From: Acidaminococcaceae bacterium
Lineage (GTDB): Bacteria; Bacillota; Negativicutes; Acidaminococcales; Acidaminococcaceae
Direction of reading: 5' to 3'
Length of the DNA: 32,000 nucleotides
Assembly: GCA_034180005.1 (NCBI GenBank)
Contig: JAXFPC010000024.1
Coordinates: forward strand, 6,246-38,245
Shown here: positions 1,905 through 31,048 of the stretch, piece after piece
How positions within the stretch are numbered: position 1 is the stretch's first letter
How the letters are laid out: every line of letters starts with the position of its first letter
Program-made: the position numbers and the translations under genes
The notes under the pieces: model-generated
What the model was told of the DNA's origin: nothing
The model's database searches: none
What the model saw: the letters and a program-made list of their open reading frames with translations, nothing else

Positions 1905-1928
1905 TTAACAAGAGCCACCTTTCCTGAT

Positions 1929-2747
1929 TTAACCGCGGACGATTTTATCAATAGCAATAACGTCCGTCAATAATTTCTGTAAATTATCAAGACGCACCAT
2001 GTTCGGTCCGTCCGACAGAGCTTCGGCAGGGTTATCATGAACCTCCAGGAACAAAGCATCGATACCCACTGCTGCGGCCGCTCTCGCCATATGCGGGACA
2101 TATTGACTTTGCCCGCCGCTGGAAGTGCCCTGTCCTCCGGGAATCTGAACACTGTGAGTAGCGTCCATCACTACCGGATAACCAAATTCACGCATCACAG
2201 CCAGACCGCGCATATCGGTAACAAGAGTATTATATCCGAAGCTTGCTCCTCGCTCCGTCAAAAGCAGATTTTTATTACCTGCTTCTTCAATTTTTTTAAT
2301 GACATTCTTCATATCCCACGGAGCCAAAAATTGTCCTTTTTTTACGTTCACCGTTTTGCCCGTCGCGGCAGCGGCGTGAACTAAATCAGTTTGCCGGCAT
2401 AAAAAAGCCGGAATTTGCAAAACATCCGCGACCTCGGCAACTTTCTCGCACTGCCACGGTTCGTGAACATCCGTAACAACAGGAACAGCCAAATCTTTTT
2501 TCAGCTGCGCCAAAAGTTGCAGGCCTTCAACCAGTCCGGGTCCTCTGAAAGAATTATAAGAAGATCGATTCGCTTTGTCAAAAGAAGCCTTAAAAACATA
2601 CGGCATACCCAAAGCTTCACAAATGGCTTTTGCTCTTTTGCCGATCATCAGACTGCGTTCGTATCCCTCCAAGACACACGGTCCTGCCATGAGAAGCAGC
2701 GGCTGCCCCTGCCCGACTTTGTAATCACCAATACTTACCGTCTGCAT
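1929..2747 (-). CDS. kdsA: 3-deoxy-8-phosphooctulonate (Kdo8P) synthase
   Basis: 272 aa. Contains [12 protein letters not shown], nearly identical to the motif I recall from E. coli KdsA, and [13 protein letters not shown] near the C-terminus. ATG with a GAGGTG RBS. Confidence 0.93.
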
Positions 2748-2760
2748 ACTTCACCTCTGC

Positions 2761-3495
2761 TTACATTTCTCCACGAGCAAACAACTCGTTCACTGCGGCA
2801 AGATCTTCCGGAGTATCTACTCCGATACCCTGAAAATCACTTTCCAAAACTTTTATCTTATAGCCGTTTTCCAAAGCCCGCAACTGTTCCAAACTTTCCG
2901 CTCTTTCCAGAGGAGTCGGAGCAAGTGCCGCATACGTCAGCAGAAAATTACGACGATAGGCATAAATTCCGACATGTTTGAAAACATTATAATCATCTTG
3001 CCGGTTCCTCGGATAAGGAAGCAGACTGCGGGAAAAATACAGAGCAAATCCGTTCAAATCTGTAACAACTTTAACCGCTGCCGGATTATCATAATCTGCT
3101 TCCGACATACGCACTTTCAGCGTTGCCATCTGCTGCTCTTCCGAGTTCTCAAAAGAACTTGCCAAGCGGTCTATAACCTCCGGAGGTATCATTGGTTCAT
3201 CGCCCTGCACATTTACAATAATGTCGGCCTCCGGATACATAAGAGCGACCTCCGCCAGGCGATCCGTTCCGCTGGGATGATCCGGCGAAGTCATAACTGC
3301 TTTGCCTCCGAAAGCTTCCACAGCCTGCAAGACCTCTTCGCTGTCGGTGGCAACAATAACTTCATCGGGAAGCTGCGCCAAAGAAGCTCTCTCATAAACA
3401 TGTTGAATCATAGGTTTGCCTGCAATCATAGACAAAGGCTTTCCCGGAAGTCTGGTAGAAGCATAACGCGCCGGTATAACGCACAAAACTTTCAT
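2761..3495 (-). CDS. kdsB: 3-deoxy-manno-octulosonate cytidylyltransferase (CMP-Kdo synthetase)
   Basis: 244 aa. N-terminal VIPARYASTRLPGKPL matches the KdsB signature, and NVQGDEP is present. The ATG overlaps the stop of the upstream waaA-lpxK ORF (TAATG). Confidence 0.93.
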   Translation of the reverse strand: MKVLCVIPARYASTRLPGKPLSMIAGKPMIQHVYERASLAQLPDEVIVATDSEEVLQAVEAFGGKAVMTSPDHPSGTDRLAEVALMYPEADIIVNVQGDEPMIPPEVIDRLASSFENSEEQQMATLKVRMSEADYDNPAAVKVVTDLNGFALYFSRSLLPYPRNRQDDYNVFKHVGIYAYRRNFLLTYAALAPTPLERAESLEQLRALENGYKIKVLESDFQGIGVDTPEDLAAVNELFARGEM

Positions 3496-6020: not shown

Positions 6021-6032
6021 CAACTGACCTCT

Positions 6033-10683: not shown

Positions 10684-10774
10684 AACATTTCACTCCTCAT
10701 ATAATCATCTCATCATCAATCGTTTAAATAATGAGTTCACAGACATCATTCTTTACAGTCGGAAAACACTATAC

Positions 10775-10803
10775 ATTTTAACTGTTGTCAAAGGTGTTTG
10801 CAA
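10775..10803 (-). promoter_or_regulatory. Predicted sigma-A-type promoter for lpxA-lpxI (-35 TTGCAA, 17-bp spacer, -10 TAAAAT)
   Basis: Minus strand reads TTGCAA (10803..10798), ACACCTTTGACAACAGT (17 nt), TAAAAT (10780..10775). It lies directly downstream of the fabZ terminator and about 90 nt upstream of the lpxA ATG. Pattern match only. Confidence 0.55.
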
Positions 10804-14220: not shown

Positions 14221-14628
14221 TTATTTCATTTTTTCGATAACCTGAGCGGTTACATCCTGCCCGCCTTGAGGCACCGCTTCCTTGACGAGGATGGCGCCGA
14301 GATTTTTCTCTTTGGCAACCTGAGCCAGTGCGGTTTCAAAACTTGCTTTTAATTTATTCTGTGCCTCACTTTGAAGCAGACGAACTTTCGCAGAATAATC
14401 CTGGGCAATTTTAGCCTGCTCTTCCGCACTTTTTCCGGCAACTTCCTTTTCCATTTGCGCCTTCAGTTCTTCAACTTTCTTAGTTCCTTCTTCTTTTGTG
14501 GTCTTAACTATTGGCGCTTCACTTTCAACTTTTTTCATATCCACAGTACCGAATTCGGCAGTACGTCCTCCACAACCGAAGGAAAGCAAAGCTACTGCCA
14601 CCATAAGAGCAACTATAATTTTTTTCAT
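14221..14628 (-). CDS. skp: OmpH/Skp-family periplasmic chaperone (short paralog, possibly lipid-anchored)
   Basis: Signal peptide MKKIIVALMVAVALLSFGC. The body is E/K/A/Q-rich and helical. The C-terminal block VAKEKNLGAILVKEAVPQGGQDVTAQVIEKM is typical of OmpH. The ATG at 14628 has a GAGGG RBS. The track start at 14643 is GTG. Confidence 0.75.
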   Translation of the reverse strand: MKKIIVALMVAVALLSFGCGGRTAEFGTVDMKKVESEAPIVKTTKEEGTKKVEELKAQMEKEVAGKSAEEQAKIAQDYSAKVRLLQSEAQNKLKASFETALAQVAKEKNLGAILVKEAVPQGGQDVTAQVIEKMK

Positions 14629-14647
14629 TACCTGAACCCTCACTTAT

Positions 14648-15565
14648 TTATTTGTTCTTGATTTCTTTAACAACTTCATCAGTCAAATCATCAGCCTTGA
14701 CATTTACCTTGTACTCGTTGAAAACCACAGTATAACCTCTCTCTTGAGCTAATTTCATAACTGCGCTCTCAATATCGGCTTCTATCTTCTTCCTCAGCTC
14801 TTCATTTTTTTCCCGCTGTTTGCCGATTTCCTGGTCCATAATCTCAAGAGCTTTTTGCAAAGCCTGCGGGGCCGCGCCCAGTTTTTCCGAATATTCGTCA
14901 TCGCCTGCTGACAAATCGGCGCGAACTTTCTTTCCTAACTCTTCAGCCTTATCACCGAGTCGCTCGTTCATCACAAGCACATACGGTTGCATTTTTTCTT
15001 TCAGGTAAGCCTGCTTTTCTGCCGCAAGCAACTCCAGTTTTTTCCCAAAATCGTCCTGAGTGCTTTGTAAAATCTGCTCTACAGCTTGCCGCTCTTCCTG
15101 TTTCATTTTCACAGCTTCCAACTGCAGACGAAGATTGAATATTTTTAGACGATACTCCTGTTCCAACGCCTGTCGACGCTCATGAATCAGCGCGTCGGCC
15201 TCCCGCTCCAGAGCGGCAAACTGTCTTTCCAAACGTTTACCTTCTTCGGCATGAGCTTCAGCCATTTTAGCATTAAATTCCGCTTCTGCATAACTCTGTC
15301 TGCTTCGTTGCTGAAGTGCACGCAATTTTAACACGCTGTCCAGTTGAGATTTAGCACGCAGCGCCTGTGCGTCACGTTTGCGCAACAAATCCTCCACAAT
15401 CTTCTCATTACGGCGTAAGCTCTCCTCTTGAGGATGACCGGCCACAGCATCTTTCCAATTTACAACTGCCAGTTTATCTTTTCCCGATTTGCCGGAACCG
15501 CAGGCGGAAATCAGCAGTACAGCCGTAATCAAGATACTTATTCTCGCTACTAATGGCCTGCTCAA
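14648..15565 (-). CDS. skp: OmpH/Skp-family protein, double-length coiled-coil variant, predicted lipoprotein
   Basis: 305 aa. Signal peptide with lipobox LLISAC. OmpH-like ends (KLAVVNWKDAVAGHPQ ... LAQERGYTVVFNEYKVNVKADDLTDEVVKEIKN) flank about 230 aa of E/K/Q/A/L-rich helix. TTG start at 15565 preceded by AGGAGGAG. Confidence 0.7.
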   Translation of the reverse strand: MSRPLVARISILITAVLLISACGSGKSGKDKLAVVNWKDAVAGHPQEESLRRNEKIVEDLLRKRDAQALRAKSQLDSVLKLRALQQRSRQSYAEAEFNAKMAEAHAEEGKRLERQFAALEREADALIHERRQALEQEYRLKIFNLRLQLEAVKMKQEERQAVEQILQSTQDDFGKKLELLAAEKQAYLKEKMQPYVLVMNERLGDKAEELGKKVRADLSAGDDEYSEKLGAAPQALQKALEIMDQEIGKQREKNEELRKKIEADIESAVMKLAQERGYTVVFNEYKVNVKADDLTDEVVKEIKNK

Positions 15566-15610
15566 AAAATCTCCTCCTGCCGAATCTTATTACTGCATCC
15601 TCAAAAAAAA

Positions 15611-16096
15611 TTATTTTGCACTTTGTACAGCCTTGGCGACCTCATCGGTAATATCAACACCGCCGTAAATAACATTGCTCTTCTCTACCACTACCGAAAG
15701 ACCTTTTTTATCAGCCACTTTCTTAATGGTGTCTTCTATTTTTTTAAGAACAGGCTCCATCAATTCTTTTTCTTTGTTAGCCAAACGCTCCTCGATCTGG
15801 GTAAAATAGCGTTTCTTTTCCTCTTCGTTCATGCTCTTGGATTTCTCTTCAAAATCTTTTTGAGCGTTTTCAACTTCCGCTTTCATTGTATTGTTGACAT
15901 TTTGCAGATCAGGACTTTGACTGACAATCATACGGTAATTCACAACGCCTATAGCAGATTCACCGGCCGCAGCAGAAGCCACTTTGCTGAAACCGCTCTG
16001 ACTAAGAGATAATGCGAAGCAGCCCAAAACAAAAACTGCAGCTACAAACAAGGAAACCATTTTAACGTTTTTGGGATTACGCAAATATTCCATCAT
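15611..16096 (-). CDS. skp: OmpH/Skp-family periplasmic chaperone
   Basis: 161 aa. Signal peptide VSLFVAAVFVLGCFALSLS. Contains AIGVVNYRMIVSQSPDLQ and VADKKGLSVVVEKSNVIYGGVDITDEVAKAV, typical of OmpH. Confidence 0.8.
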   Translation of the reverse strand: MMEYLRNPKNVKMVSLFVAAVFVLGCFALSLSQSGFSKVASAAAGESAIGVVNYRMIVSQSPDLQNVNNTMKAEVENAQKDFEEKSKSMNEEEKKRYFTQIEERLANKEKELMEPVLKKIEDTIKKVADKKGLSVVVEKSNVIYGGVDITDEVAKAVQSAK

Positions 16097-16177: not shown

Positions 16178-17452
16178 CTACAAATTTCCTATGACACGCA
16201 GATAAAACTCCTTGCCGCCGTAGACGTACTCCGTGCTTAAGAATTCATGGATCCTGTACCTTACAGCAAATTCATTTCTGTTCTGTTCGGAATAGTGCTC
16301 CGCTCGCAGCTTCCACTTCGGACCCAGTTCATACTCCAACCGGTAAACATTTTCTCGCGCCGGCATGCGGTATCTGTAACTCCACTTGCTGCGCCCCCAA
16401 TGATGGTTCATACCTACGCTTCCCTGCCAACGAACGTCATCAAAAACAAGTTCTCCCTCGGCAAAAAGTTCATTGCGTCCGGAAATAAATTTCCCGATAT
16501 GAGCCGTACCTGAAAGATTATTTTCTTTTCTGCCAATATCACCGTAACCTTCGAACCAAATCCTGTAATCGGACGAATGCAAAACGATATTGACCGTCAA
16601 ATCCGCTCCCGGTTCCAGAGTTACAGTGGGCTTTAAAGCGTAAATCTGCAATTCTCTTTCGCGAAGAAGTTTTTCCGTCAGCTGCTTCTCCAAAACATTT
16701 CTGTTTGCCTTAACATATTCCACCGGCATACCTCTGAGTTTTTCACACTCGGAAATATATTTATATTTCAATTTCATCAACAGAATATTTGGAATATCGT
16801 CGCTCCTAAGTTCGTATTTTATATTTCTGACAAGTTGTCCTACAGGAAATATGATCACCTGAACTGTCGTCGCTCCTCCGTCATATTGCAGCACATCGAC
16901 AGCAGCCTTAAACTCCGGCAAACTTTCTTCGACGCGCTCGCGCACTAACCGTCGCAAAACTCCCCCGGCCCAATCTCCGGCATCAACCGATGCGCCGTTG
17001 ATAGCCTTCGTCAGTTCACAGCGCAGCGACGGTAACCGACTCTCCAATTCTGCGGCTGTCGCATCGTCAATCCCGGAAAATTTCAGATCGATAACAGGCG
17101 AAACTATCACACTGCTCCATGGCTTGGCGTACATGCGCACTCGCAAAACTCTTCCGGCATCAAACTCAACATTTTTCAACTCATATCCGGTAAAAACTCT
17201 GTCTCCGATTTCGGCAAGAAGCCTGCTGTATTCGCCGCGCGAACTTTCTACAGCTACGCTCTCTTTGTCCAGAAAGAGTTGTTCACACACCACCTGCATA
17301 CTGGTGGCCATTTTTTTCAGAAGAAGATCGCTGGTACTGCCGCCCGTATCAATAACATCTACGTAAACTTCTTCAATATTTGCAGAAAAGGCCTGCTGCA
17401 CCGGCAGCAGGCTCACAAAAACTGCAGCTAAAACACTACGGTATAGCTTCAT
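16178..17452 (-). CDS. Secreted protein of unknown function (alpha/beta N-terminal region, beta-strand-rich C-terminus), bamA-adjacent
   Basis: Long ORF in an operon-like position. Signal peptide MKLYRSVLAAVFVSLLPVQQAFSA. I recognise no family motif. The last ~130 aa show alternating aromatic/polar strand patterns (YRIWFEGYG, KWSYRYRM, VYRLEYELG, FAVRYRI). The ATG at 17452 lies 19 nt after the bamA stop. The track start at 17467 is TTG. Confidence 0.8.
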   Translation of the reverse strand: MKLYRSVLAAVFVSLLPVQQAFSANIEEVYVDVIDTGGSTSDLLLKKMATSMQVVCEQLFLDKESVAVESSRGEYSRLLAEIGDRVFTGYELKNVEFDAGRVLRVRMYAKPWSSVIVSPVIDLKFSGIDDATAAELESRLPSLRCELTKAINGASVDAGDWAGGVLRRLVRERVEESLPEFKAAVDVLQYDGGATTVQVIIFPVGQLVRNIKYELRSDDIPNILLMKLKYKYISECEKLRGMPVEYVKANRNVLEKQLTEKLLRERELQIYALKPTVTLEPGADLTVNIVLHSSDYRIWFEGYGDIGRKENNLSGTAHIGKFISGRNELFAEGELVFDDVRWQGSVGMNHHWGRSKWSYRYRMPARENVYRLEYELGPKWKLRAEHYSEQNRNEFAVRYRIHEFLSTEYVYGGKEFYLRVIGNL

Positions 17453-17470
17453 GGATATCACCAACAAACT

Positions 17471-19328: not shown

Positions 19329-19820
19329 TTATTTCGAATTGCGCAGTTCAACCCTAGCCGCCTGCACAAGGCGACGAACCTCGTCGCGTGATACGTCAAG
19401 ATTATCAACGGGTATATTCTGCTTGACTTCGGAAGCAACAGTTTTATGCTCCTCCTTAAAAGAACTATTCTCAAGCGCAGGTTTCTGTTCTGCAGCTGTA
19501 GCCTGAATCTGCGTTCTTACCGGCTCCGATATGGCAACCCGGTCGCTTTGAGGCGCGATGTTTTTTCTGGCGTAAAACCATCCGCTTAAACCAGAAATAA
19601 CAAGCAAAACTGAACAGAGCACTGCCAAAAGCTGCCTGTTCCAACACCACACCGAAGAATCCCTGCGGCGCAAATTTTTCAACTCGGCCTCTGCAAGCAT
19701 AAGATCCAGCTCTCCACGCAACTCTCTTTTATCGAGAAAACTTTTCTCAGCGTTTTCCAAACTGTTTTTCGCAGCGGTAATACGCCGGAGCAAAGTTCTG
19801 CCGTTCTCAGCCACCTGCAC
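19329..19820 (-). CDS. Single-pass membrane protein of unknown function (candidate anti-sigma or regulatory partner, speculative)
   Basis: 163 aa. Helical charged N-terminal region (LENAEKSFLDKRELRGELDLMLAEAELKNLRRR), one TM helix (LLAVLCSVLLVISGLSGWFYA), and an ~80-aa polar tail. GTG starts at 19820 and 19814 follow AAGGAGG. The stop is 19 nt from the bamA start. Confidence 0.7.
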   Translation of the reverse strand: MQVAENGRTLLRRITAAKNSLENAEKSFLDKRELRGELDLMLAEAELKNLRRRDSSVWCWNRQLLAVLCSVLLVISGLSGWFYARKNIAPQSDRVAISEPVRTQIQATAAEQKPALENSSFKEEHKTVASEVKQNIPVDNLDVSRDEVRRLVQAARVELRNSK

Positions 19821-19991
19821 GACCTCCTTTAAGTTTTACTCGGATGATACCTCTTTCAAAAACATTCTGACTTTTTATATAGAGTCATACTTTTTTATGA
19901 ATTATCTACATTGATTTAATTAAAATATGCCGGCATTTCCTCAAAATTACTCATTATTTCTCAAATTATCAATAATATCATGCTGAAATCA

Positions 19992-20627
19992 TCATGAATT
20001 ATTCAAGTCATGCATGAACCTCGACAACATTCCGCGTATACGTCGCACACCCTTCTTCTGCAACCTGTAAACATGCCCCAAGCTTACGTTAATGGTATCT
20101 GCTACAGCTTGAGCCGTTCTGTCTTCGATATAAATTTCCTGCAACACCTGCTGCTCCTTAGCCGGCAATCTTTGCAACGCCTGTTCTACTTTCTCTTTTA
20201 CTGCAAGCTGTTCAAATATCTCCGCCGGAGAACAAGCGTCGGACGGCAACACATCAGCAAGAGTGACTCCCTGATACAGTTCGCTTTCCAAAGAAAGGTC
20301 AACATTTTTACTGCAGGAACGAAGATAATCTATCATACTTCCTTTAATGCGGTAGGAAGCGAATAAACTGAAAGCCACTTTGCGAGTATGATCGTAGCTG
20401 TCAGCTGCTTCCAAAAGTCCAACCATGCCTTCTTGAATAAGTTCCATAGTTTCAGTCTCAGGGAGTTTGAAAGCAACAGCTATTTTAAATACCAACGGTT
20501 GGTACGAAAGCATCAGCTTTTGGTGCGCCTGTAAATCACCCCGAGCCGACAACTCCCATAAAGCCATTTCTTCTTCTGTTCTTAACAACGGTTGCTTGCG
20601 CAATTCCGCCAAATATTCCTGCAGCAT
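19992..20627 (-). CDS. RNA polymerase sigma factor, sigma-70 family (non-ECF-looking, group-3-like)
   Basis: 211 aa. Region 1.2/2.1-like LRTEEEMALWELSARGDLQAHQKLMLSYQPLVFKIA, region 2.2 ELIQEGMVGLLEAADSYD, region 4 HTH TAQAVADTINVSLGHVYRLQKKGVRRIR. ATG with a GGGAG RBS, 23 nt after the tamB stop. Confidence 0.85.
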   Translation of the reverse strand: MLQEYLAELRKQPLLRTEEEMALWELSARGDLQAHQKLMLSYQPLVFKIAVAFKLPETETMELIQEGMVGLLEAADSYDHTRKVAFSLFASYRIKGSMIDYLRSCSKNVDLSLESELYQGVTLADVLPSDACSPAEIFEQLAVKEKVEQALQRLPAKEQQVLQEIYIEDRTAQAVADTINVSLGHVYRLQKKGVRRIRGMLSRFMHDLNNS

Positions 20628-20650: not shown

Positions 20651-23600
20651 TTAAAAGGTTAGCTTATATTCCACCCCGTACCAATGTTCTTTTTCTTTCA
20701 GCTTGCTGCTGTTGTTAGAATACGTTATGTTAAAATTATCGCTTATATCGTACTGCCCGAAGATACTTCTGTCAATACCGTCAAAGCTTGTCGTGTAACC
20801 AATCATAAAACGATCAGTTAAATATTTGCTCACCAGAATATTATACTGTCTCCGCTCATCCTTTGTAAGATCGCGTACTCTGTAGCTGCTGCCGGAATAT
20901 CCGATGCCCGAGCGAACCCGTCCGTTATAAATCTTAAATTGGTCTAAGCCCAGCCATTTCTCGACAAAATCCTCCACTTCTCCAAGAATTGTCATCTGGA
21001 GTCCTGCTGTCAGCAAATTAGCCATGTCGTCTCCGGTAATATAATCATTGCCAGCAATATCTCTCTGCAAAGTCAACATTCTCACTATAGTGTTTTTATC
21101 GAGAGGAGGATCGCTGCTTAGCTGCAGATCCATATTGTCGAGTTGTCCGGCAATGCGCATGGCAATATTATACCTGTTGAACCGCGCTCTGCTTTCCAAA
21201 TTTATATTGGGAATAAAGCTGCCTGCATCAATCCAAACAAGCCTTGCTTCATCAACTTTAAAGTTGGTGCGCAGATAAGTTACTGTTCCTTTCGTCGACT
21301 TTACGGATCCTTCTATCACGGGGAAAAGCGTGCTGCCCTTCAGCTTCAGACCTCCGCTCACCCAAAGATCATACAAAAAACTGTTGTAAAAATGAATCTT
21401 CGGTCCCAGCTCTATCTGAAGATCCATACCGTAATTGGAACTTCCTTCGCCGAATTCAGGTATCGTAGGCATATTTACCAAAACATCGTCAAATTTTATG
21501 CCACCCTTTATCATAGGTCTGAAAGCACTCGGCGGCGGATTATTTCCTTTTCTGTTTCTGAAATCAAAATATTTTTGCGGCAAAAGTTCAACATCCCCGG
21601 TTATCTTTCCGCTGAAGAGCGATGTATGAATCTCCGCGTTATCCGCTTTCACCTGCAGACTGTACGCCGTATCGGCAGATGTATTCAATGCATAAGTTCC
21701 TGCCGCATAAAGTGTTCCTTTGCCAAGTTTTGCCGACAACTCGGATAAATTGATACTGTTACCGTTAAATTCGGAGCGCAGATTCAGCTGTTCAAAAACT
21801 GTGGAAACATCCTTCAATTTAAGACTGCCGTCTTTAATCTGGATCGATCCGTACAGCAACGGCGATTCAAGTGTTCCGTCAATTTGTACTTTGCCTTGAA
21901 TATCCCCTATGCCCCACTCGACAAAATCTGTTAATGCTGGCAACAAGCCCAAACGAGCATCATCAAAATCAACATCTATCTTCATATGCGCATCTGCATG
22001 TCTGCGCTCTTCCTTGGGCCGGAAAAGATCCAGCGGAATCTCGCCCGACGCTCCCACATTATAAACATCCTTGGATAAAAGCAATTGGTGTAGCTTGAGG
22101 GAATCATCTTTCAGCGACAACACGGCTGTTGCTTTGTCAAGACTTACTCCGTCGATGCTACCGTCGTAAATTTCCACCGATGCTGAACCTGTAGGTGCGT
22201 CAAAACTTCCCTTTAATTCCGCACGTAAATCCGTCGTGCCTTTAATATCCCGCGGCACTTTCATCATAGCGGTAACTATTCCCGGGTCAGCTTTGCGAGC
22301 CGTTAATCCGATATTATATTCCCTTTTTTCAAAATCAACGTCGCCGTTTACAAGAACTATGCCCCTATCTTCAACGCTCTGTTTTTCCTGAAGCTTGACA
22401 TCGTCGAAATAAAGTTTTCCTTCACGCAGTCGTCCCTTAAAATTCAACTGATGGTACAACAGCCGGCTGAGTTTAACGTCATTGGCTGTAACGTCTATGT
22501 CCACACCTGCATTTTCGTCAGAATGCATAGTTATTTTTCCGTTAACAATTCCTTCTATATCATGCTCTACGCGACACATCCTCAAAATACCGCCGACGTC
22601 TCCCCACATGGTCAGTATATCTCCGGAAAGAAAACCGTCCGGAAGACTGATATTTAAATCCGCACTGTACATACCGTAATCAACCGTATTATTTTTATGA
22701 GGTTGCTTGAAAGATACGTTGACTAAATTTTTTCCCTTGCCATTTAAATTGACTCTTCCCTCTACATCGGTAATTGTCTCTCCGTTTATGCTTATATTCT
22801 CTGCCGAAACATTGCCGACAAAAAGAGGTTCTGACAAAGTGCCGCGCAGTTTTCCGGAAGCATTCACCAAACCGGCAAGTACAACGTTGTCACCAGTAAA
22901 AGGTATATTCCCCAAATCTACATTTTGAGACTGCACATCAAAATTTAAACTCTTATCCTGCAGCATGCTGCCGTTCAATACAACCTTGGCGGCATAAGCG
23001 TCCACGCGGAAATCTTTCAGCGTAAGCACTCCACTGTCATAAACGTAACTGCCTGTAATACTGTCAAAAAGATTATCGTCTATGCTGCCGTCCGAAGCAT
23101 AGAGATTCCCCTGCGCATACGGCGCGTCCATACTGCCGCGAATATGCAACTCATTATCCACATTGCCTGTCAAAGGTACGCCACTGTGAAGATGCTCAGC
23201 CAGCGGCTCCAAACGTACGGCATCGGTCTTAAGCGTCAAATCAAGCTGAGGAGTTTCTTCGTTCAAATTTACTGTTCCGCTTAAAATATGCTTGCCCTGC
23301 GACATATTGAAAACAATATTTTCAATGGCAGCAATGCCGTCTTTCAGCACTAAGCTGCCCACAGCACTTTTTACAGGCTGTTTCATGATATCCGCATCAC
23401 GAAGTTCCAAAGATACTTCCATCTCCGGACGATTGATGCTGCCGCGAAGCGCAAATCTTGAGGAAACGTTTCCACCGCTGCATTCAACGCCTACAGCTTC
23501 AAGCAAAGGCTGCAACCGGAAAGCATTCATTTTGCCGACGATATCCATGTTGCCGTTTTTTTCTATATACCCAACCGCATTTATGCTTCCGTCTCCGGAA

Positions 23601-24934
23601 AAAGCGCTGAAATGTTCCGCGTAAAGACGTTCATTTTTATACTTACCGTCAAAAGCCAACTTATGAATTTTTACACCGCGAAAATCAAGCGCCAAACTTT
23701 CTGCAGCCACGTTGACATCAAATCCGTCGTCTGCACGACGTACCAAAAATGCCGCATTTCCGTCCATAGTTACAGCATTTTGCGGCGATGCTTGCGGAGC
23801 ATACCGAATATTTTTCAGTTCAAGATCTCCCGCTGCAGTTTCTGTTGCTGTATTATATGTCCCGCCAAATATAAATGTCCCTTCACCGTAAGTTCCCGTT
23901 CCGTTACTTATATTAAGAATCCTCTCACGGTAAGAAAAAGGCAGCTTAACACCTGTAAAAGCGTGACCGTCATACATGAACCGCTCTGCTGAAACACTGC
24001 CTTCACCGCTTACATTCTCCGGATTTTTCAAATCGGCAGTGCCGCTCAGGAGCAGCCCTTGTCCATCCACTTCGATTGACAGCTTATCTGTTTGTACTAC
24101 ACTGTCGCTGCTTGTAATTTTTCCGCTCAGTTTTATTTTATGTTCGATATCTCGCAGCGCCAACACGCCTGTCACATCGTTCAAAAAACCTGTTCCCGAA
24201 TAGCGCACCTTTTCGCCGTCATTATCATAAATGAGGCGCACTGATTCCACAATACCCGTCATGTCGGCGACACCGCAGTATTCCTGCAGCATCCGAGCAT
24301 AAGAGTCCAGTATGAGCCTTTCACTTGACGCGGTAATATTTCCTGCGCCTTTAGTAGTCACCAATCCTTTCAAAAGAACTTTATTCTCTCCCTCTTGCAG
24401 CTGCAGTTCAGCTGCAAATTTAGGATTGCCTGTTCCGCTGATATCACCGTCTACCGAAAAAAATTTGCTTTCTTCCGTCGTGCTGACATGCAGCCCGCCG
24501 TTTTTTATTTCCAACAACCCGTAAAAAGGTGTGCTGTCAGAATCAGTACTTTTCAAAAATTCCGCTGTGTTCCATTTTTTGTTCTCATCTCGTTTCAGAT
24601 ACACTTGAGGCGCTTGCAATGTTACCCTACTCAGAGAACGTAAAGGATCGCTCAGACCAAGCCATGGTCTGAAACGCAGCTGCACCAGAGGCAGTTCCGC
24701 AATTTTGTCTCCTATCGCATCTTTTATCACAACGTCGCTTAGTTCCGCTTCAAGTCCTCCGTTCCAAACTATTTTGCCGACACTGACTTTTCCATTGATG
24801 TAATCTGTCGCTCTCTCTTCAATTACAGGCAGTAATTCTTTGAAATATTCCGGAGCGACGTCCTTAACCAAGAAGGCGTACCCCGCCGATAAAACTACGC
24901 CAATCAAACAAAAAATTTTTAAAAACAGCTTCAT
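20651..24934 (-). CDS. tamB: Translocation and assembly module protein TamB (AsmA-like, DUF490 C-terminus)
   Basis: About 1427 aa. N-terminal anchor MKLFLKIFCLIGVVLSAGYAFLV, a very long beta-rich body with G/N/D/S-rich repeats, and the C-terminal end HWYGVEYKLTF. The ATG at 24934 has GGAG 6 nt upstream. The track start at 24970 is TTG without an RBS. Confidence 0.85.
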   Translation of the reverse strand: MKLFLKIFCLIGVVLSAGYAFLVKDVAPEYFKELLPVIEERATDYINGKVSVGKIVWNGGLEAELSDVVIKDAIGDKIAELPLVQLRFRPWLGLSDPLRSLSRVTLQAPQVYLKRDENKKWNTAEFLKSTDSDSTPFYGLLEIKNGGLHVSTTEESKFFSVDGDISGTGNPKFAAELQLQEGENKVLLKGLVTTKGAGNITASSERLILDSYARMLQEYCGVADMTGIVESVRLIYDNDGEKVRYSGTGFLNDVTGVLALRDIEHKIKLSGKITSSDSVVQTDKLSIEVDGQGLLLSGTADLKNPENVSGEGSVSAERFMYDGHAFTGVKLPFSYRERILNISNGTGTYGEGTFIFGGTYNTATETAAGDLELKNIRYAPQASPQNAVTMDGNAAFLVRRADDGFDVNVAAESLALDFRGVKIHKLAFDGKYKNERLYAEHFSAFSGDGSINAVGYIEKNGNMDIVGKMNAFRLQPLLEAVGVECSGGNVSSRFALRGSINRPEMEVSLELRDADIMKQPVKSAVGSLVLKDGIAAIENIVFNMSQGKHILSGTVNLNEETPQLDLTLKTDAVRLEPLAEHLHSGVPLTGNVDNELHIRGSMDAPYAQGNLYASDGSIDDNLFDSITGSYVYDSGVLTLKDFRVDAYAAKVVLNGSMLQDKSLNFDVQSQNVDLGNIPFTGDNVVLAGLVNASGKLRGTLSEPLFVGNVSAENISINGETITDVEGRVNLNGKGKNLVNVSFKQPHKNNTVDYGMYSADLNISLPDGFLSGDILTMWGDVGGILRMCRVEHDIEGIVNGKITMHSDENAGVDIDVTANDVKLSRLLYHQLNFKGRLREGKLYFDDVKLQEKQSVEDRGIVLVNGDVDFEKREYNIGLTARKADPGIVTAMMKVPRDIKGTTDLRAELKGSFDAPTGSASVEIYDGSIDGVSLDKATAVLSLKDDSLKLHQLLLSKDVYNVGASGEIPLDLFRPKEERRHADAHMKIDVDFDDARLGLLPALTDFVEWGIGDIQGKVQIDGTLESPLLYGSIQIKDGSLKLKDVSTVFEQLNLRSEFNGNSINLSELSAKLGKGTLYAAGTYALNTSADTAYSLQVKADNAEIHTSLFSGKITGDVELLPQKYFDFRNRKGNNPPPSAFRPMIKGGIKFDDVLVNMPTIPEFGEGSSNYGMDLQIELGPKIHFYNSFLYDLWVSGGLKLKGSTLFPVIEGSVKSTKGTVTYLRTNFKVDEARLVWIDAGSFIPNINLESRARFNRYNIAMRIAGQLDNMDLQLSSDPPLDKNTIVRMLTLQRDIAGNDYITGDDMANLLTAGLQMTILGEVEDFVEKWLGLDQFKIYNGRVRSGIGYSGSSYRVRDLTKDERRQYNILVSKYLTDRFMIGYTTSFDGIDRSIFGQYDISDNFNITYSNNSSKLKEKEHWYGVEYKLTF

Positions 24935-25012
24935 GTTCTGCTCCGATATCCGTTCCATGTAAATCAACAAAAATAATTACCACTATTCTACTTCGACACA
25001 AGGTATAATCTT

Positions 25013-25095: not shown

Positions 25096-26439
25096 TTATT
25101 TTGAAACAGACGTCTCAACTTTTATCGGCACTGCCATCGGCTCACCTATGGATGTCAACAAATTTGTTTTCGCAGTATTATAATCATACATAGCTGTAAA
25201 ATAATTATTCTTAGCGTCTGTTAGAGCAACCTGCGCATCCAACACATCAGTGTTCGTAGCAACGCCGGCACGATAACTCAACTGTGCTATGCGGAAATCC
25301 TCTTCGGCTTTAGCAACTGCCATCTCCGTAGTTTTGATTCTTTTTTCCGCTTCTCGCAAGCTCAGATAATTACTGCGCACATCCAAATTAACAGTGTCAA
25401 CCGTGTTGCGATACGCTTCTTCGGCAGAGTGAAGATTTGCTTCCGCTCCGTGTATTTTCGACAAAGTAACGCCGGAATCAAAAATATTCAGAGAAACATT
25501 AACGCCGACGCCCCACTTACCGTTGTCATCTCCGGGCCAATCAGTACCGTCCCAATTTTGCGTAGCACCTAAAGCTACCGTAGGCATATGACCGCTCCGC
25601 GCAATCTGCAAAGCGCCCTTGTAAACGTTCACTTTCTGACGCGCCTGCTCCAGCTCAGGCCTATGCTCGGCTGCATAGTCGAGGCAATATTTCAGATCTT
25701 TATCGTAAGGAGTATAGTTAAGCACATACTGAAGCTTCAGTGTCGTATCCAAAGGCAGACCGACAACTCTGTTCAAATTCGCTTCCGCCAGATGATAAGC
25801 ATTTTCCGCTTTCAGCAAACTTTGTTGCGCTCCTGCCAACTCAACTTCACTACGCAACACGTCCACCTTGGCTACGACACCCACTTCATACTGAGCGTTA
25901 ACGTTCTTAAGATGATCTTCCAGGCGCTGTACTGATTCTTTACCCAACTGCTGCATATTATCCGCCTGCAAAACGCTGAAATAACTGTTGGTCACATTTG
26001 AGCGCATTTCATTGTACGCTTTTTGTATTCCCACCTCAGCGATTCTATAGGATGCCTCAGCTTGTTTGGCATTGCCTTCCAACTTGCCTCCCGTAAAAAT
26101 CGGCAAACTTACAGAAAGACCGTTGGCATATTTATTGCCTATCCCTTTGCTGTAAATTCCCGGAATAACTTCCTGATAATCATTATAACCGCCACGATTG
26201 GTACTGTGAGTTCCCGTAATGCTGATGCCGAAGCTTTCGCGAGCCGCGTTATAATTGGAACGCGCATAGTCTCGTTCATAAGATGCTATCTTTAAATCCG
26301 GATGAGTAGCAAACGCTCTCTCCATAGCCTGCTGCAAATCAAGTTCCACTACCTCACCGGCAAATGCTGACCTCGACAGCATGAGTACCGCTGCGGCGGC
26401 AAGAACCAATCCTCTGTTTCCATATTTATAAATGCTCAT
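25096..26439 (-). CDS. tolC: TolC-family outer membrane channel (OEP family)
   Basis: About 447 aa. Signal peptide MSIYKYGNRGLVLAAAAVLMLSRSAFA. The mature start LDLQQAMERAFATHPDLKIA and the duplicated helical/beta repeat architecture are typical of TolC/OprM. The ATG at 26439 has GGAGG 7 nt upstream. The track start at 26457 is GTG and would contain that RBS. Confidence 0.88.
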   Translation of the reverse strand: MSIYKYGNRGLVLAAAAVLMLSRSAFAGEVVELDLQQAMERAFATHPDLKIASYERDYARSNYNAARESFGISITGTHSTNRGGYNDYQEVIPGIYSKGIGNKYANGLSVSLPIFTGGKLEGNAKQAEASYRIAEVGIQKAYNEMRSNVTNSYFSVLQADNMQQLGKESVQRLEDHLKNVNAQYEVGVVAKVDVLRSEVELAGAQQSLLKAENAYHLAEANLNRVVGLPLDTTLKLQYVLNYTPYDKDLKYCLDYAAEHRPELEQARQKVNVYKGALQIARSGHMPTVALGATQNWDGTDWPGDDNGKWGVGVNVSLNIFDSGVTLSKIHGAEANLHSAEEAYRNTVDTVNLDVRSNYLSLREAEKRIKTTEMAVAKAEEDFRIAQLSYRAGVATNTDVLDAQVALTDAKNNYFTAMYDYNTAKTNLLTSIGEPMAVPIKVETSVSK

Positions 26440-26484
26440 CTGTAAACCTCCATTCACAGCTGACTGATTAGTCAGTATAGCAAA

Positions 26485-26513
26485 ATTATATTTATTTTAA
26501 ACTGCAAAGTCAA
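26485..26513 (-). promoter_or_regulatory. Predicted sigma-A-type promoter for tolC (-35 TTGACT, 17-bp spacer, -10 TATAAT)
   Basis: Minus strand reads TTGACT (26513..26508), TTGCAGTTTAAAATAAA (17 nt), TATAAT (26490..26485). It lies about 45 nt upstream of the tolC ATG. Pattern match only. Confidence 0.6.
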
Positions 26514-26546: not shown

Positions 26547-27815
26547 TCAAAAGTAAGAACGCACGCCGAAGTAGGTACCTTTACTATTACCGCGCACATC
26601 CATACTTTCTCCGTAGAGCGAAATACCGTCGCTCAATTTAACTTCGCCGCCCAATCTTACTTTCAGGTTGTCAAAATTATATGCCTGCGAATAAATCTTC
26701 AGAGAATTGCCGAAATCATAGCTTGCTCCCACACCCAGCTCTCCCTGCATCGCACCGGCCTCCAACCCCGCGCGACCGAATTTTCTCCCGGCGATAAAAT
26801 CGACCTTATTGCTGCCCCCTATATCATAACCACCCATATAAATATAGTTTTTCTCTCCGGGCTTCAACTTTACTCCCATACTTCCGCGCCAGTCTCCAGC
26901 TTTAAAACTGCGCCCCGCGTCTAAAGCAAACTCAGCCTCACTGAAAGTCCCTAAAATTTTATTTGCTTTGGCGCTTGTTTCTCTGACGTTCACCAAGGTT
27001 TCTTTAAGAGACTGGCTCGTTACCGGATCCTGCGCCACCTGCTCTAAAACCTTAACTATATTTTCCATGCGTTCGCTAGTTTGAGCCATATGCTGCGCAA
27101 TAGCGGCAACATTTCTGCCTGTGGTACCATCATTGTCCACACCTGTCATAACGCTGTCAATATGGGCTACAGTACTGTTCATATGCCTGCTTAATTCATT
27201 CATTTGCCGAATCATGCTCACCATGTCCTGCTGGCTGGCTACAGCAACCTCTGCCATTATTCCCGTGAACTTATTCATATTCACGGAAATTTCTCCAAAA
27301 TCTTTAAAGCCTGTTTTTAAAGAATTTTGAACCTCCGGATCACCGAAAATATTTTCAAAAGCTACAGCAATTTTTTCCAGCCTTCGTAAAAGTTCTCCGG
27401 AATCGGCAAAAAAGCTATCCATTCCACCTCCGGAAACACCGTTTATATGGCTACCTTCTTCAATGTATCCACTGTCGTAACTGCGGGGCGGTACAATGTT
27501 GACGAATTTTTCTCCTAAAATACCGTCCGCGCTGATAGTAAACGCTGCACCTTTAGGAATTTTTATATTCTTTTCAATATCGGCTACAACTTCCACTTTA
27601 TCCGTCGCTACCTTGATGTCTTTGACTGTACCCACCTGCACCCCGGCATAACGAACCATGTGTCCTTTCATAAGACCATCCACTTGAGGATAGTTTATGT
27701 GCAGCTTATATCCTGCCGGGCCGAAGGACAGCGCTCCCATAAAAGTTATTATTCCGGCCAATACGGCAGCTCCGCTTAATGCGAACGCACCTACTTTCAC
27801 CTCATGGTTTGCCAT
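26547..27815 (-). CDS. mlaD: MCE-domain protein MlaD with long helical region and beta-barrel-like C-terminal extension
   Basis: 422 aa. N-terminal TM VKVGAFALSGAAVLAGIITFMGAL. MCE domain (YKLHINYPQVDGLMKGHMVRYAGVQVGTVKDIKV...ISADGILGEKFVNI). About 160 aa of helix. The last ~120 aa have alternating strand patterns and end in GTYFGVRSYF. ATG with an AAGGAG RBS, overlapping the mlaF 3' end by 14 nt. Confidence 0.85.
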   Translation of the reverse strand: MANHEVKVGAFALSGAAVLAGIITFMGALSFGPAGYKLHINYPQVDGLMKGHMVRYAGVQVGTVKDIKVATDKVEVVADIEKNIKIPKGAAFTISADGILGEKFVNIVPPRSYDSGYIEEGSHINGVSGGGMDSFFADSGELLRRLEKIAVAFENIFGDPEVQNSLKTGFKDFGEISVNMNKFTGIMAEVAVASQQDMVSMIRQMNELSRHMNSTVAHIDSVMTGVDNDGTTGRNVAAIAQHMAQTSERMENIVKVLEQVAQDPVTSQSLKETLVNVRETSAKANKILGTFSEAEFALDAGRSFKAGDWRGSMGVKLKPGEKNYIYMGGYDIGGSNKVDFIAGRKFGRAGLEAGAMQGELGVGASYDFGNSLKIYSQAYNFDNLKVRLGGEVKLSDGISLYGESMDVRGNSKGTYFGVRSYF

Positions 27816-29392: not shown

Positions 29393-31048
29393 TTATTTAA
29401 CAGTCAAGACTACTTCCACTTCGCCATCAACAATAAAATCAAAAGGATACTTCTTTTTATAGGGAGAACCGTGCAGCAATCCTTCCAACCCGGTATCAGG
29501 CTGCTCTTCATCAGGTCGCTTACCGCTGGATAAGTCAATAATTATCTCATTATTTTTATCGGCGTTATTAATATTTTTTACATAATCAAAAAGTGTCCTC
29601 TGCTTTTCTTTCTTCTTAGCTGCCGGAGCACCCTCTTCTTTTTGTTTGCGCAGAAGATCTATTACCCAAGCGAAGCTGCTGCCGCCTCTGACATTCAGTG
29701 CCAATTTCGGTTCGCTGTATTTCTCGGGCACGATAAAATTTATCTTTCTCTGAAAAGATTCTCCCCTATAAGGCTTCAGTTCAACGGTGAACTCGACTTT
29801 TTCCCCCGGTTTCACCACTGACTTATCCGTCTTTACACTGATTATCTCGGCGACCTGCACAGCTTCCGACAATTCCGCCTCAACATTAACACCGTACACA
29901 TCGATATCGGTAAATTTATTTTTCATCAACACGGAAGTAGCATCCGACAGCTCAACATTGATATTTTTCAATAAATTACTTACGGCATAATACATATTTT
30001 CTCTTTTAATTTCCAGCATTTTTTTATCTTGATCTCTGCCGGTAATAGTGAAAACCACTTTAGCCGTACCTCCGCCGTTTCTGTCCATAGTTTTGCTGGC
30101 AGTATTAACAACAGCCGCGTCGACTACAGCCGGAAAAAGTTCCGCGTCTTCAATAACATTGACTCTTGTACTGTTGGTAACGCCTCTGTCTTTATCGGCG
30201 ACGGAAACAAAAACCGGAACTGTCGGAGGCAATTTCCCGATGACTCCGCCTATACCACTGAAACGATCCTGATCAAAATGCCCCAAAGCGTCACCGATGG
30301 TACCGACTTTATAGCTACTCTGCAAATTAGGAACACACCCAAGAATCCAGGATTTAGTCATAAAAAATCCGCTGTTTCCGCGTTGCATGAAAGGATGACC
30401 GAACGCAAGCACTCTCCCGTTGTCATCAGTCCAGGTGACGGTACCCAAAGCGCCCAGAGTAAGATCACCTTTCATAATAGCAACACCCACAGCACTGCCT
30501 GGTTCAAGTTTAGTCTTCGAAGTAACATCTGTGCTTCCCGATCCTACAGGTTGAAAACCGAAACCGTTCAAACGCTCCTGCAAATATTCCAATCCGTACT
30601 CGGTAAATCCTCCCGCCATCAAAGGTGTACCTTGAGGAATCCAATGAGCGTCTCTTCGCGCAGGTTCATCCAACATCCGCAGCATGCTCCCTATGGGAGT
30701 AAGAAAACAATAATGCGGATCGTTAAAAGTTCTTCCGTAAGCAACAGCGCCCACCAGCCTGCCGTCGACATAAACAGGGCTGCCGCTCATACCTTGAGCT
30801 ACTCCGCCCGTTTTATCTATCAACGAACCGTACAAACGCACAAAAATATTGTATCCCGCCGCTTCACTGCCGGTAACTCCGAGGATTTCCACATCAAAAT
30901 CTTCAATGGTATCACCTGATATAACCGTCTTTCCGATACCGTGCATCCCGGGTTTTATATCTTTGATCGGCATCAAAGATATATTGGCGGCAACTGCCGT
31001 CAAATTAACGCAGAACATGATAAGTGTCAAAATTATCTTAAAAGCCAT
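29393..31048 (-). CDS. Secreted peptidase S55 (SpoIVB-like) domain protein
   Basis: 551 aa. N-terminal signal/anchor MAFKIILTLIMFCVNLTAVAA. Serine block GGVAQGMSGSPVYVDGRLVGAVAYG (GMSGSP encoded at 30776..30793). His block LGALGTVTWTDDNGRVLAFGHPF (AFGHPF encoded at 30389..30406). The C-terminal half is beta-rich, followed by a K/E-rich segment. ATG with a GGGAG RBS. Confidence 0.75.
   Translation of the reverse strand: MAFKIILTLIMFCVNLTAVAANISLMPIKDIKPGMHGIGKTVISGDTIEDFDVEILGVTGSEAAGYNIFVRLYGSLIDKTGGVAQGMSGSPVYVDGRLVGAVAYGRTFNDPHYCFLTPIGSMLRMLDEPARRDAHWIPQGTPLMAGGFTEYGLEYLQERLNGFGFQPVGSGSTDVTSKTKLEPGSAVGVAIMKGDLTLGALGTVTWTDDNGRVLAFGHPFMQRGNSGFFMTKSWILGCVPNLQSSYKVGTIGDALGHFDQDRFSGIGGVIGKLPPTVPVFVSVADKDRGVTNSTRVNVIEDAELFPAVVDAAVVNTASKTMDRNGGGTAKVVFTITGRDQDKKMLEIKRENMYYAVSNLLKNINVELSDATSVLMKNKFTDIDVYGVNVEAELSEAVQVAEIISVKTDKSVVKPGEKVEFTVELKPYRGESFQRKINFIVPEKYSEPKLALNVRGGSSFAWVIDLLRKQKEEGAPAAKKKEKQRTLFDYVKNINNADKNNEIIIDLSSGKRPDEEQPDTGLEGLLHGSPYKKKYPFDFIVDGEVEVVLTVK

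Follow-up and report, generated by a model that had tools for sequence, protein, structure and literature searches.

What does a sigma factor gene do between tamB and bamA, which encode a lipid-transfer protein and the beta-barrel insertase of the outer membrane (OM)? The question is raised by a 32,000-nucleotide (nt) stretch of DNA from an Acidaminococcaceae bacterium (GenBank assembly GCA_034180005.1, contig JAXFPC010000024.1, positions 6,246 to 38,245), which was analysed whole and is called the window here. In the window, a sigma-70-family gene is followed by a spacer and by the gene for a small single-pass membrane protein, called SonB-like after its positional equivalent in Acetonema longum. 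Our tentative answer, to which we give a probability of roughly 45%, is that the two proteins form a dedicated regulatory module of the OM assembly locus, with the SonB-like protein as the anti-sigma factor. The strongest support comes from the deep adjacency of these genes, their joint loss in Veillonella parvula, a near-invariant and probably cytoplasmic segment of the SonB-like protein, and a conserved non-canonical element in the spacer.

The minus strand carries every gene of the region, in the order tamB, sigma gene, AT-rich spacer, SonB-like gene and bamA. The central features are the following (aa, amino acids; ORF, open reading frame):

20651-24970, minus strand: tamB, 1439 aa, PF04357 (TamB) E=5.5e-33
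19992-20627, minus strand: sigma-70-family factor, 211 aa, PF04542 (Sigma70_r2) E=3.2e-14 and PF04545 (Sigma70_r4) E=5.7e-12
19821-19991, minus strand: intergenic spacer, 171 nt, AT-rich, GC ~0.35 vs ~0.45-0.48 nearby
19329-19820, minus strand: SonB-like single-pass membrane protein, ORF of 163 aa from the first GTG, probable start at 19814 giving 161 aa
17471-19309, minus strand: bamA, 612 aa, Omp85 E=4.7e-51 plus POTRA

A first-pass annotation of the window, made from the sequence alone, had given the sigma factor 211 aa and the three successive gaps 23, 171 and 19 nt, and all of these figures were exact. Since only 23 nt separate the tamB stop from the sigma start, tamB and the sigma gene are probably co-transcribed. 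The same is probable for the SonB-like gene and bamA because of the 19-nt gap between the stop of the first and the start of the second. In the six other lineages with both genes called, TamB and sigma are 10-38 nt apart, and the SonB-to-bamA gap is 14-52 nt in other lineages. The sigma and membrane-protein genes are not chance ORFs, because 1395 homologues (E<=1e-3) and 402 homologues, respectively, were found.

Next, the conservation of the locus was surveyed, as the first-pass annotation had proposed for the order tamB, sigma, membrane protein, bamA. The genome scan gave the best 80 loci, all of them Acidaminococcaceae species loci, and wider taxa were sampled one at a time. The order TamB-sigma-SonB-BamA-SonA-Skp was found in 80/80 Acidaminococcaceae loci, wherever the contig reaches, and the surveyed order also held in most of the other lineages sampled. 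The order from TamB to BamA was seen in Megasphaera, Anaerospora, a further abundant Veillonellaceae-like lineage, the window's nearest relative, two unassigned contigs, a contig with neighbouring proteins that group with those of Ca. Sysuimicrobiota/GAL15, and one NCBI metagenome-assembled genome. A Synergistaceae contig has sigma, small protein, BamA, SonA-like protein and lpxD, and tamB is not adjacent. The small proteins of all sampled loci share an N-terminal motif, and most also share a C-terminal motif. The sigma-SonB-BamA adjacency is conserved across at least three phyla. Acidaminococcus was not among the 80 best loci, which is not proof of absence.

Adjacency to bamA also marks the boundary of the sigma family, because every member sampled down to 91 bits sits in a BamA context and the next weaker full-length matches (E 1e-15 to 1e-19) have other surroundings. 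Behind one distant match, P0311 on contig L091 (4996-7896), come a serine recombinase gene and a separate ORF of 123 aa with region 4. The arrangement resembles a sigK-type gene interrupted by an inserted element, and the match is outside the family studied here. The locus of V. parvula has TamB (Vpar_0526), BamA (Vpar_0527) and Skp (Vpar_0528-30), and sigma, SonB and SonA are all missing from it. The absence of SonA and SonB from V. parvula was also reported independently (PMC13018214).

What kind of sigma factor is it? Membership in the sigma-70 family is supported by Pfam, which found region 2, for core binding and -10 recognition, and region 4, the helix-turn-helix for -35 recognition, and nothing else, by a TIGR02937 score of 96.5 bits against a cut-off of 42.9, and by the presence of both helical domains in the AlphaFold2 model (predicted local distance difference test, pLDDT, 79.6). 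The protein consists of region 1.2 (aa 1-28, with model helices at 2-10 and 17-28), sigma2 (aa 32-105), a disordered linker (aa 106-132, pLDDT <50, no fold) and sigma4 (aa 134-210). PF00140 is precomputed for many homologues, and region 1.2-2.1 of RpoS and RpoD aligns with the N-terminus, so the region 1.2/2.1-like N-terminus noted by the first-pass annotation holds.

Scores against the curated NCBIfam models were then compared with their cut-offs. The generic TIGR02937 was the sole model above its cut-off, both in the window sigma and in 40/40 diverse family members. All the specific sigma models, including RpoS, scored 55-89 bits against cut-offs of 190-460. The values for the window sigma were 88.6 vs 189.6 for FliA_WhiG, 75.6 vs 234 for SigBFG, 72 vs 323 for RpoH, 66 vs 252 for SigK, 61 vs 339 for SigE, 60.6 vs 212 for PRK08295, which we take to be the SigH model, and 57.2 vs 209 for SigW, the best specific extracytoplasmic function (ECF) model. 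With all curated cut-offs of specific models missed by the window sigma and the 40 family members, identities as FliA, SigH, a sporulation sigma or a specific ECF factor were ruled out; the sigma groups with none of the flagellar or sporulation sigmas.

That the sigma is not a standard ECF factor, as had been suspected, is also indicated by Foldseek. The top matches listed were group 1-3 sigmas or their holoenzymes (sigma32, sigmaS, SigB, SigD, SigH, WhiG, sigma28), with no ECF entry among them. ECF factors lack region 1.2, which is present here, though the two-domain layout of sigma2 plus sigma4 is shared with them. The suspected resemblance to group 3 stood in part. The sequence is nearest to groups 1-3, but the sigma3 domain that marks group 3 is lacking and its place is taken by the disordered aa 106-132; PF04539 was found neither in the window sigma by Pfam nor in the precomputed domains of the 240 homologues listed. 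Group-3 hidden Markov models (HMMs) align to the protein in two separate stretches. The domain make-up is ECF-like and the sequence is closest to groups 1-3. The protein is a two-domain factor with region 1.2, outside every named family, and neither a standard ECF nor a standard group 3 sigma.

A search of 1.84 billion cluster representatives found a distinct family of ~60 representatives, 185-221 aa long, whose alignments are full-length and unbroken. With ordinary sigmas the alignment falls into two stretches, as this family lacks the middle part. The ~210-aa proteins have motifs of their own: YQPLVFK, LIQEGTVGLIEAVExFD, RLPxKE and YRLQKxAxRRLRGMLS. There is an identical public copy of the window sigma, and identity to Phascolarctobacterium sp. 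proteins is ~70%. Together with the 80 best loci, which are all Acidaminococcaceae, this points to a Phascolarctobacterium-like Negativicute as the source of the window. The sigma is unmentioned in the searchable literature and, judged from it, is unstudied.

Some family members are annotated as 'sporulation-specific sigma factor' in IMG. This label would fit a general alternative factor, for growth phase or a SigH-like transition state, whose regulon lies elsewhere and whose position in this locus is an inherited accident. The best HMM and fold matches, which are general group 1-3 sigmas (sigma32, sigmaS, SigB, SigH, FliA/WhiG), would fit it as well, and so would the lack of extra copies of the candidate promoter described below in the flanking OM genes. 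However, every specific model is far below its cut-off, and the family also occurs outside Bacillota and in Phascolarctobacterium and Megasphaera, genera that are not known to sporulate. An accidental position is also hard to square with a BamA adjacency that survives in three phyla and marks the family boundary, or with the loss of sigma together with SonB and SonA in V. parvula. We consider this explanation improbable.

The second protein of the proposed module has four parts, listed here in 161-aa numbering:

19638-19814, minus strand: conserved N-terminal helix, aa 1-59, from alignments across genera
19575-19631, minus strand: transmembrane (TM) helix, aa 62-80
minus strand, aa ~85-138: hypervariable linker
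19341-19388, minus strand: conserved C-terminal helix, aa 143-158

The ORF of 163 aa is as first annotated, but the true start is more likely the second GTG at 19814, which gives 161 aa. A AAAGGAGG ribosome-binding site lies 8 nt upstream of this codon and only 2 nt from the first GTG, and P0121, a public 99%-identical model, is 161 aa long. Homologues have AGGAGG-N7-ATG. The early description of a charged helical N-terminus, one TM helix and a tail of ~80 aa was accurate: there are 13 K/R and 10 D/E in the first 61 aa with no signal peptide, followed by a hydrophobic 19-mer at aa 62-80 (mean Kyte-Doolittle 2.26) and the tail. The AlphaFold2 model has a helix at 3-85, disorder at 90-139 and a helix at 143-158. 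The protein had no Pfam or NCBIfam match even at E<=10, and a profile search of the PDB returned noise only.

Conservation is very uneven along the protein. Mean identity of homologues to the window protein was 0.53 in the N-terminal part, 0.47 in the TM helix, 0.08 in the linker and 0.41 in the C-terminal part. The N-terminal ~55 aa are near-invariant (RIRxxKSSLxNAEQSFxDNxxxRGELDLMLAEAELKNLR), the linker is low-complexity and disordered with a length of 55-70 aa, and the C-terminal motif is ISKxDMxxLVQSARVELSNSK. A location in the inner membrane with a cytoplasmic N-terminus is the likelier arrangement. A near-invariant cytoplasmic part with a hypervariable periplasmic linker is the pattern expected of a signalling anchor. 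The layout is also that of a membrane anti-sigma factor, namely a single-pass protein with a probably cytoplasmic N-terminal part before the TM helix, and its gene adjoins the sigma gene in all loci.

A protein in this position has been described in A. longum. SonB is the product encoded directly upstream of bamA and was described as a putative lipoprotein of the OM, with a TM helix predicted; SonA is the product encoded directly downstream, with 426 aa, a 10-stranded barrel and three POTRA domains (PMC13018214). The A. longum accessions run F7NM22 (SonA), F7NM23 (BamA), F7NM24 (SonB), two unmentioned accessions, F7NM27 (TolC), F7NM28 (MlaD) and F7NM31 (S55 peptidase) (PMC13018214). This is the order of the window, with room for exactly TamB and sigma between SonB and TolC, and F7NM25 would be the predicted sigma. 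The counterpart of SonA in the window is:

16178-17467, minus strand: SonA-like protein, 429 aa, positional equivalent of A. longum F7NM22

The two proteins of the window hold the same slots beside bamA, the SonA lengths are 426 vs 429 aa, the flanking order is shared, and a TM helix is predicted in both SonB proteins. By position, the membrane protein corresponds to SonB and the 429-aa protein to SonA. The match to SonB (F7NM24) is one of position, drawn through Anaerospora, which has the same layout. Anaerospora was chosen as what we take to be a sporulating Negativicute related to A. longum. The first-pass annotation knew of no characterisation of the pair. This remains so for the sigma in searchable papers, but the membrane protein is the positional SonB of a February 2026 paper in Nat Commun (PMC13018214), in which the word sigma has 0 occurrences.

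The same paper treats SonB as an OM lipoprotein, whereas our reading places it in the inner membrane. If the published prediction were right, the SonB-like protein would be a lipoprotein accessory to BamA with no relation to the sigma. An L-A-G-C-like tetrapeptide does open the hydrophobic segment in many Phascolarctobacterium homologues. However, the Cys is missing in Megasphaera, Anaerospora and several Acidaminococcaceae, and in the window protein the tetrapeptide reads A-V-L-C, which does not qualify as a lipobox. As the criterion for a lipoprotein we used a short n-region, an h-region of 7-22 aa and a lipobox [LVI][ASTVI][GAS]C. The SonB-like proteins have instead ~57 mostly charged residues ahead of the hydrophobic segment, at most ~4 hydrophobic residues before the Cys, and no signal-peptide h-region. 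Also, the paper that proposes the lipoprotein found no Lol pathway in A. longum (PMC13018214). We regard a lipoprotein as very improbable, and the label is probably a misdescription.

The spacer between the two genes is the next source of evidence. It is 116-368 nt long in all 85 Negativicute-type loci, and the median over all loci is 161.5 nt. It has no predicted terminator. An RNA element in the spacer was rejected, since there was no stable fold (z-score -0.65) and no Rfam family was found with the whole window scanned. The first-pass annotation had suggested a search for a shared motif unlike that of sigma-A upstream of tamB, the membrane-protein gene and other OM genes. A conserved element was found upstream of sonB, and no further copies were found in the OM cluster.

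The family consensus of the element is GTGAAA-N16-GA(T/C)T(A/T)TA. The heptamer GA(T/C)T(A/T/C)TA occurs in 74/84 unique spacers; shuffled spacers gave 11.5 on average and 22 at most. In most cases it precedes the start codon by 35-60 nt (range 23-158). In 40 spacers, at least 5/6 positions of GTGAAA match at a spacing of precisely 16, against at most 4 spacers at any other spacing. Both boxes are conserved, with 1.1-1.7 bits/position at most positions, and the intervening 15 nt are not. The heptamer is also present in Anaerospora, Megasphaera (GATTTTA) and contig L085. The element fits the sigma-A consensus poorly: for the best TATAAT-like hexamers, the spacer would have to be 19-21 nt long. 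The sigma-A consensus scan of the window gave 11/12 promoters for tolC and skp1 and none for sonB-bamA. Within +/-8 kb, the element occurs essentially only in the sigma-sonB spacer (86 loci). In the model favoured below, the neighbouring sigma would use it.

The copy in the window is degenerate:

19880-19909, minus strand: GTAGAT (19904-19909), 17-nt spacer, GACTCTA (19880-19886)

The window's nearest relative also has a degenerate copy, GTAAAG-N17-GACTGTA. When a position weight matrix for GTGAAAA-N15-GAYTWTA was used to look for a wider regulon, the window gave one other match, GTTAAAA-N15-GACTGTA (14.4 bits, 10749-10786, minus strand), upstream of lpxA in the 210-nt fabZ-lpxA gap. This is at chance level, because 1.15 matches were expected. 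A second conserved block, TGnTATAAT(C), lies ~45 nt upstream of GAYTWTA in L015, L021, L031, L045 and other Phascolarctobacterium spacers. It resembles an extended -10 sigma-A promoter and suggests tandem promoters before sonB-bamA.

The module we favour is built on the genes, their architecture, conservation, order and co-loss, and on the conserved promoter-like element. The sigma would be made together with TamB, within a tolC-tamB-sigma unit whose likely start is the predicted promoter in front of tolC:

26485-26513, minus strand: predicted sigma-A-type promoter TTGACT-17-TATAAT upstream of tolC, consensus scan, 11/12 matches
25096-26457, minus strand: tolC, upstream of tamB

The sigma would then direct RNA polymerase to the spacer promoter that is unlike the sigma-A consensus, and this would drive sonB-bamA-sonA and perhaps skp. 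SonB would lie in the inner membrane with its N-terminus in the cytoplasm, where its conserved helix would keep the sigma inactive. It would be an anti-sigma factor of a new, short, zinc-free type. The disordered periplasmic linker and the C-terminal helix would reach BamA/SonA or the OM and report on assembly. If this contact were disturbed, the sigma would be released and transcription of the bamA operon would rise. With sonB itself within the induced operon, the response would be self-limiting. The binding of sigma by SonB, the use of the element by the sigma, the topology and the signal are the proposed parts of this model. An anti-sigma role for SonB is a plausible hypothesis. The model is also favoured by the gap between sigma and sonB in the Synergistaceae, Sysuimicrobiota and L089 loci, which is only 32-51 nt, a spacing as in sigma/anti-sigma operons. 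Another point for it is that A. longum expresses SonB, BamA and SonA together, with one predicted promoter in common (PMC13018214).

Several results weigh against this module. Pfam, NCBIfam and PDB profile searches detected no anti-sigma domain in the membrane protein, and a regular-expression search for the zinc motif HxxxCxxC was negative, in agreement with the first-pass annotation. AlphaFold2 modelled the N-terminal part as a single long helix running into the TM helix, with no folded sigma-binding domain. The flanks of the TM helix have 4 vs 3 K/R, so the positive-inside rule is only weakly decisive. Sigma and sonB are probably in different transcription units in Negativicutes, which is unusual for sigma/anti-sigma pairs. 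As for the element, its -35-like half is degenerate in the window copy, it overlaps a canonical TTGCCA-N17-TATAAT in the Succiniclasticum group, and it could instead be a sigma-A promoter or a transcription-factor site. No further copies were found in the OM cluster of the window and the 86 loci, so a wider regulon is not supported. Finally, a mirror-tree analysis covered 65 loci. Correlations between the distance matrices were 0.83-0.97 throughout, and partial correlations with sigma, controlling for BamA and TamB, were 0.21 for the SonB N-terminal part, 0.48 for the SonB C-terminal part, 0.20 for SonA and -0.14 for Skp1. This result is not interpretable as support for the pairing.

Another possible explanation is that the sigma does regulate the OM locus and that SonB is a structural or accessory part of BAM/TAM (the beta-barrel assembly machinery and the translocation and assembly module) rather than an anti-sigma factor. 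SonB would be anchored in the inner membrane, its linker would span the periplasm, and its C-terminal helix would dock on BamA or SonA. Control of the sigma would come from elsewhere, for example from co-transcription with tamB, from proteolysis or from a soluble partner. The lack of a detectable anti-sigma domain and a mirror-tree signal not concentrated in the cytoplasmic part of SonB fit this explanation, as do the tight coupling of SonB to bamA (14-52 nt) and the C-terminal ~24 aa of SonB, which are conserved as much as the N-terminus. The co-expression of SonB, BamA and SonA in A. longum (PMC13018214) suits an accessory part equally. However, anti-BamA co-immunoprecipitation in A. longum did not recover SonB (PMC13018214). 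An accessory part also leaves two things unexplained, the near-invariance of the 55-aa cytoplasmic segment and the adjacency of sigma and sonB without an adjacent tamB in Synergistaceae. We consider this explanation rather unlikely.

How does the proposed sigma/SonB module compare to known systems? It fits best among the membrane-tethered sigma-factor circuits that serve the cell envelope, with both parts here in no named family. The working analogy is sigmaE/RseA of Escherichia coli, which likewise has a sigma-70-family factor and a single-pass inner-membrane partner with a cytoplasmic N-terminus and a periplasmic C-terminus. The E. coli sigmaE regulon includes bamA and skp. In contrast to that pair, the proteins here have no sequence relation to RpoE or RseA. 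The sigma has region 1.2 and matches no specific ECF model, the cytoplasmic part of the partner is ~55 aa with no recognisable anti-sigma domain, and the genes lie inside the tamB-bamA locus and not in an rpoE-rseABC operon. The first-pass annotation had stated that sigmaE/RseA is not linked to bamA in Proteobacteria. This is correct as stated, but in E. coli K-12 (NC_000913.3 196546-204496) the order is rseP-bamA-skp-lpxD-fabZ-lpxA-lpxB. The run from bamA to lpxB is common to E. coli and the window, and in E. coli the gene directly upstream of bamA is rseP, which encodes the site-2 protease acting in the sigmaE pathway. In both lineages, bamA has a neighbour with a known or proposed role in envelope-stress signalling.

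CnrY, a class II anti-sigma and the partner of the ECF factor CnrH, has a zinc-free helical cytoplasmic segment of ~45 aa, one TM helix and a small periplasmic part. The N-terminal ~55 aa and TM helix of the SonB-like protein are comparable in size and layout, which may be a resemblance only. No sequence similarity was detected, and the periplasmic part of the SonB-like protein differs in being a long disordered linker with a conserved terminal helix. For the sigma, FliA/WhiG (sigma28) provides the best specific HMM (88.6 bits) and PDB sequence match (1rp3, E=5e-16), and Bacillus subtilis SigH, which is of similar length, appears in the fold matches. Both differ from it in scores far below the cut-offs (189.6 and 212, respectively) and in alignments that fall into two stretches, as region 3 is lacking here. 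No flagellar genes lie near the window sigma, and the candidate promoter GTGAAA-N16-GAYTWTA differs from TAAA-N15-GCCGATAT.

The surrounding genes place the module in the OM cluster of diderm Firmicutes (Antunes et al. 2016; PMC5007114). In order of transcription, the window has an S55 (SpoIVB-type) peptidase, mlaE, mlaF, a long mlaD, tolC, tamB and the sigma gene, and then the 171-nt spacer, the SonB-like gene, bamA, the 429-aa protein, three skp/ompH paralogues, lpxD and the remaining lipid A pathway. The SonA-like protein had no match in a Pfam search and a PDB sequence search. Its gene is kept downstream of bamA in the 80 Acidaminococcaceae loci, as far as contigs reach, and is absent from contigs L086 and L088, though both hold sigma and SonB. 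The three skp/OmpH paralogues stand in a row (14221-16096, minus strand; 161, 305 and 140 aa). The middle one, with 305 aa, is double the usual length, and its OmpH match is confined to the C-terminal third. An 842-aa ORF (3495-6023, minus strand) has a Kdo transferase domain (PF04413, aa 36-217) and LpxK (PF02606, aa 486-832) and looks like a WaaA-LpxK fusion protein. MlaD (26547-27815, minus strand, 422 aa) has an MCE domain at aa 4-125 and a long C-terminal extension, which matches the trans-envelope MlaD reported for V. parvula (PMC10665443).

The S55 peptidase (551 aa, 29393-31048, minus strand) heads the OM cluster, and on contig L086 its gene (1780-3564) immediately precedes tamB-sigma. 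In Bacillus, SpoIVB serves the sigmaK checkpoint as its signalling protease, which makes the S55 peptidase a candidate for a protease acting on SonB. Its retention in V. parvula (Vpar_0521) despite the loss of sigma and SonB speaks against this link. The A. longum homologue, F7NM31, co-eluted with BamA (PMC13018214).

Diderm Firmicutes have neither the BamB-E lipoproteins nor the Lol pathway (PMC13018214). We found no regulator of their OM cluster in the searchable literature, and no account there of how OM assembly is sensed or adjusted outside Proteobacteria. The sigma module is a concrete candidate. It may have been overlooked because V. parvula, the tractable model, has lost sigma, SonB and SonA together. 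SonB deserves to be re-examined as an inner-membrane signalling protein and not as an OM lipoprotein. If the pairing of its cytoplasmic helix with a sigma made of region 1.2, sigma2 and sigma4 is true, the circuit would work like sigmaE/RseA with unrelated parts and would be built into the assembly locus itself. It is possible, although doubtful, that this is an ancient trans-envelope device of Terrabacteria-type diderms, in which a new class of sigma is held by a new class of anti-sigma that touches BamA or SonA. Such a device would feed the state of BAM back on bamA, would be independent of and possibly older than sigmaE/RseA/DegS/RseP, and would have been lost in Veillonella. If the module is real, envelope-stress signalling in Terrabacteria would become testable, which would bear on models of the diderm-to-monoderm transition.

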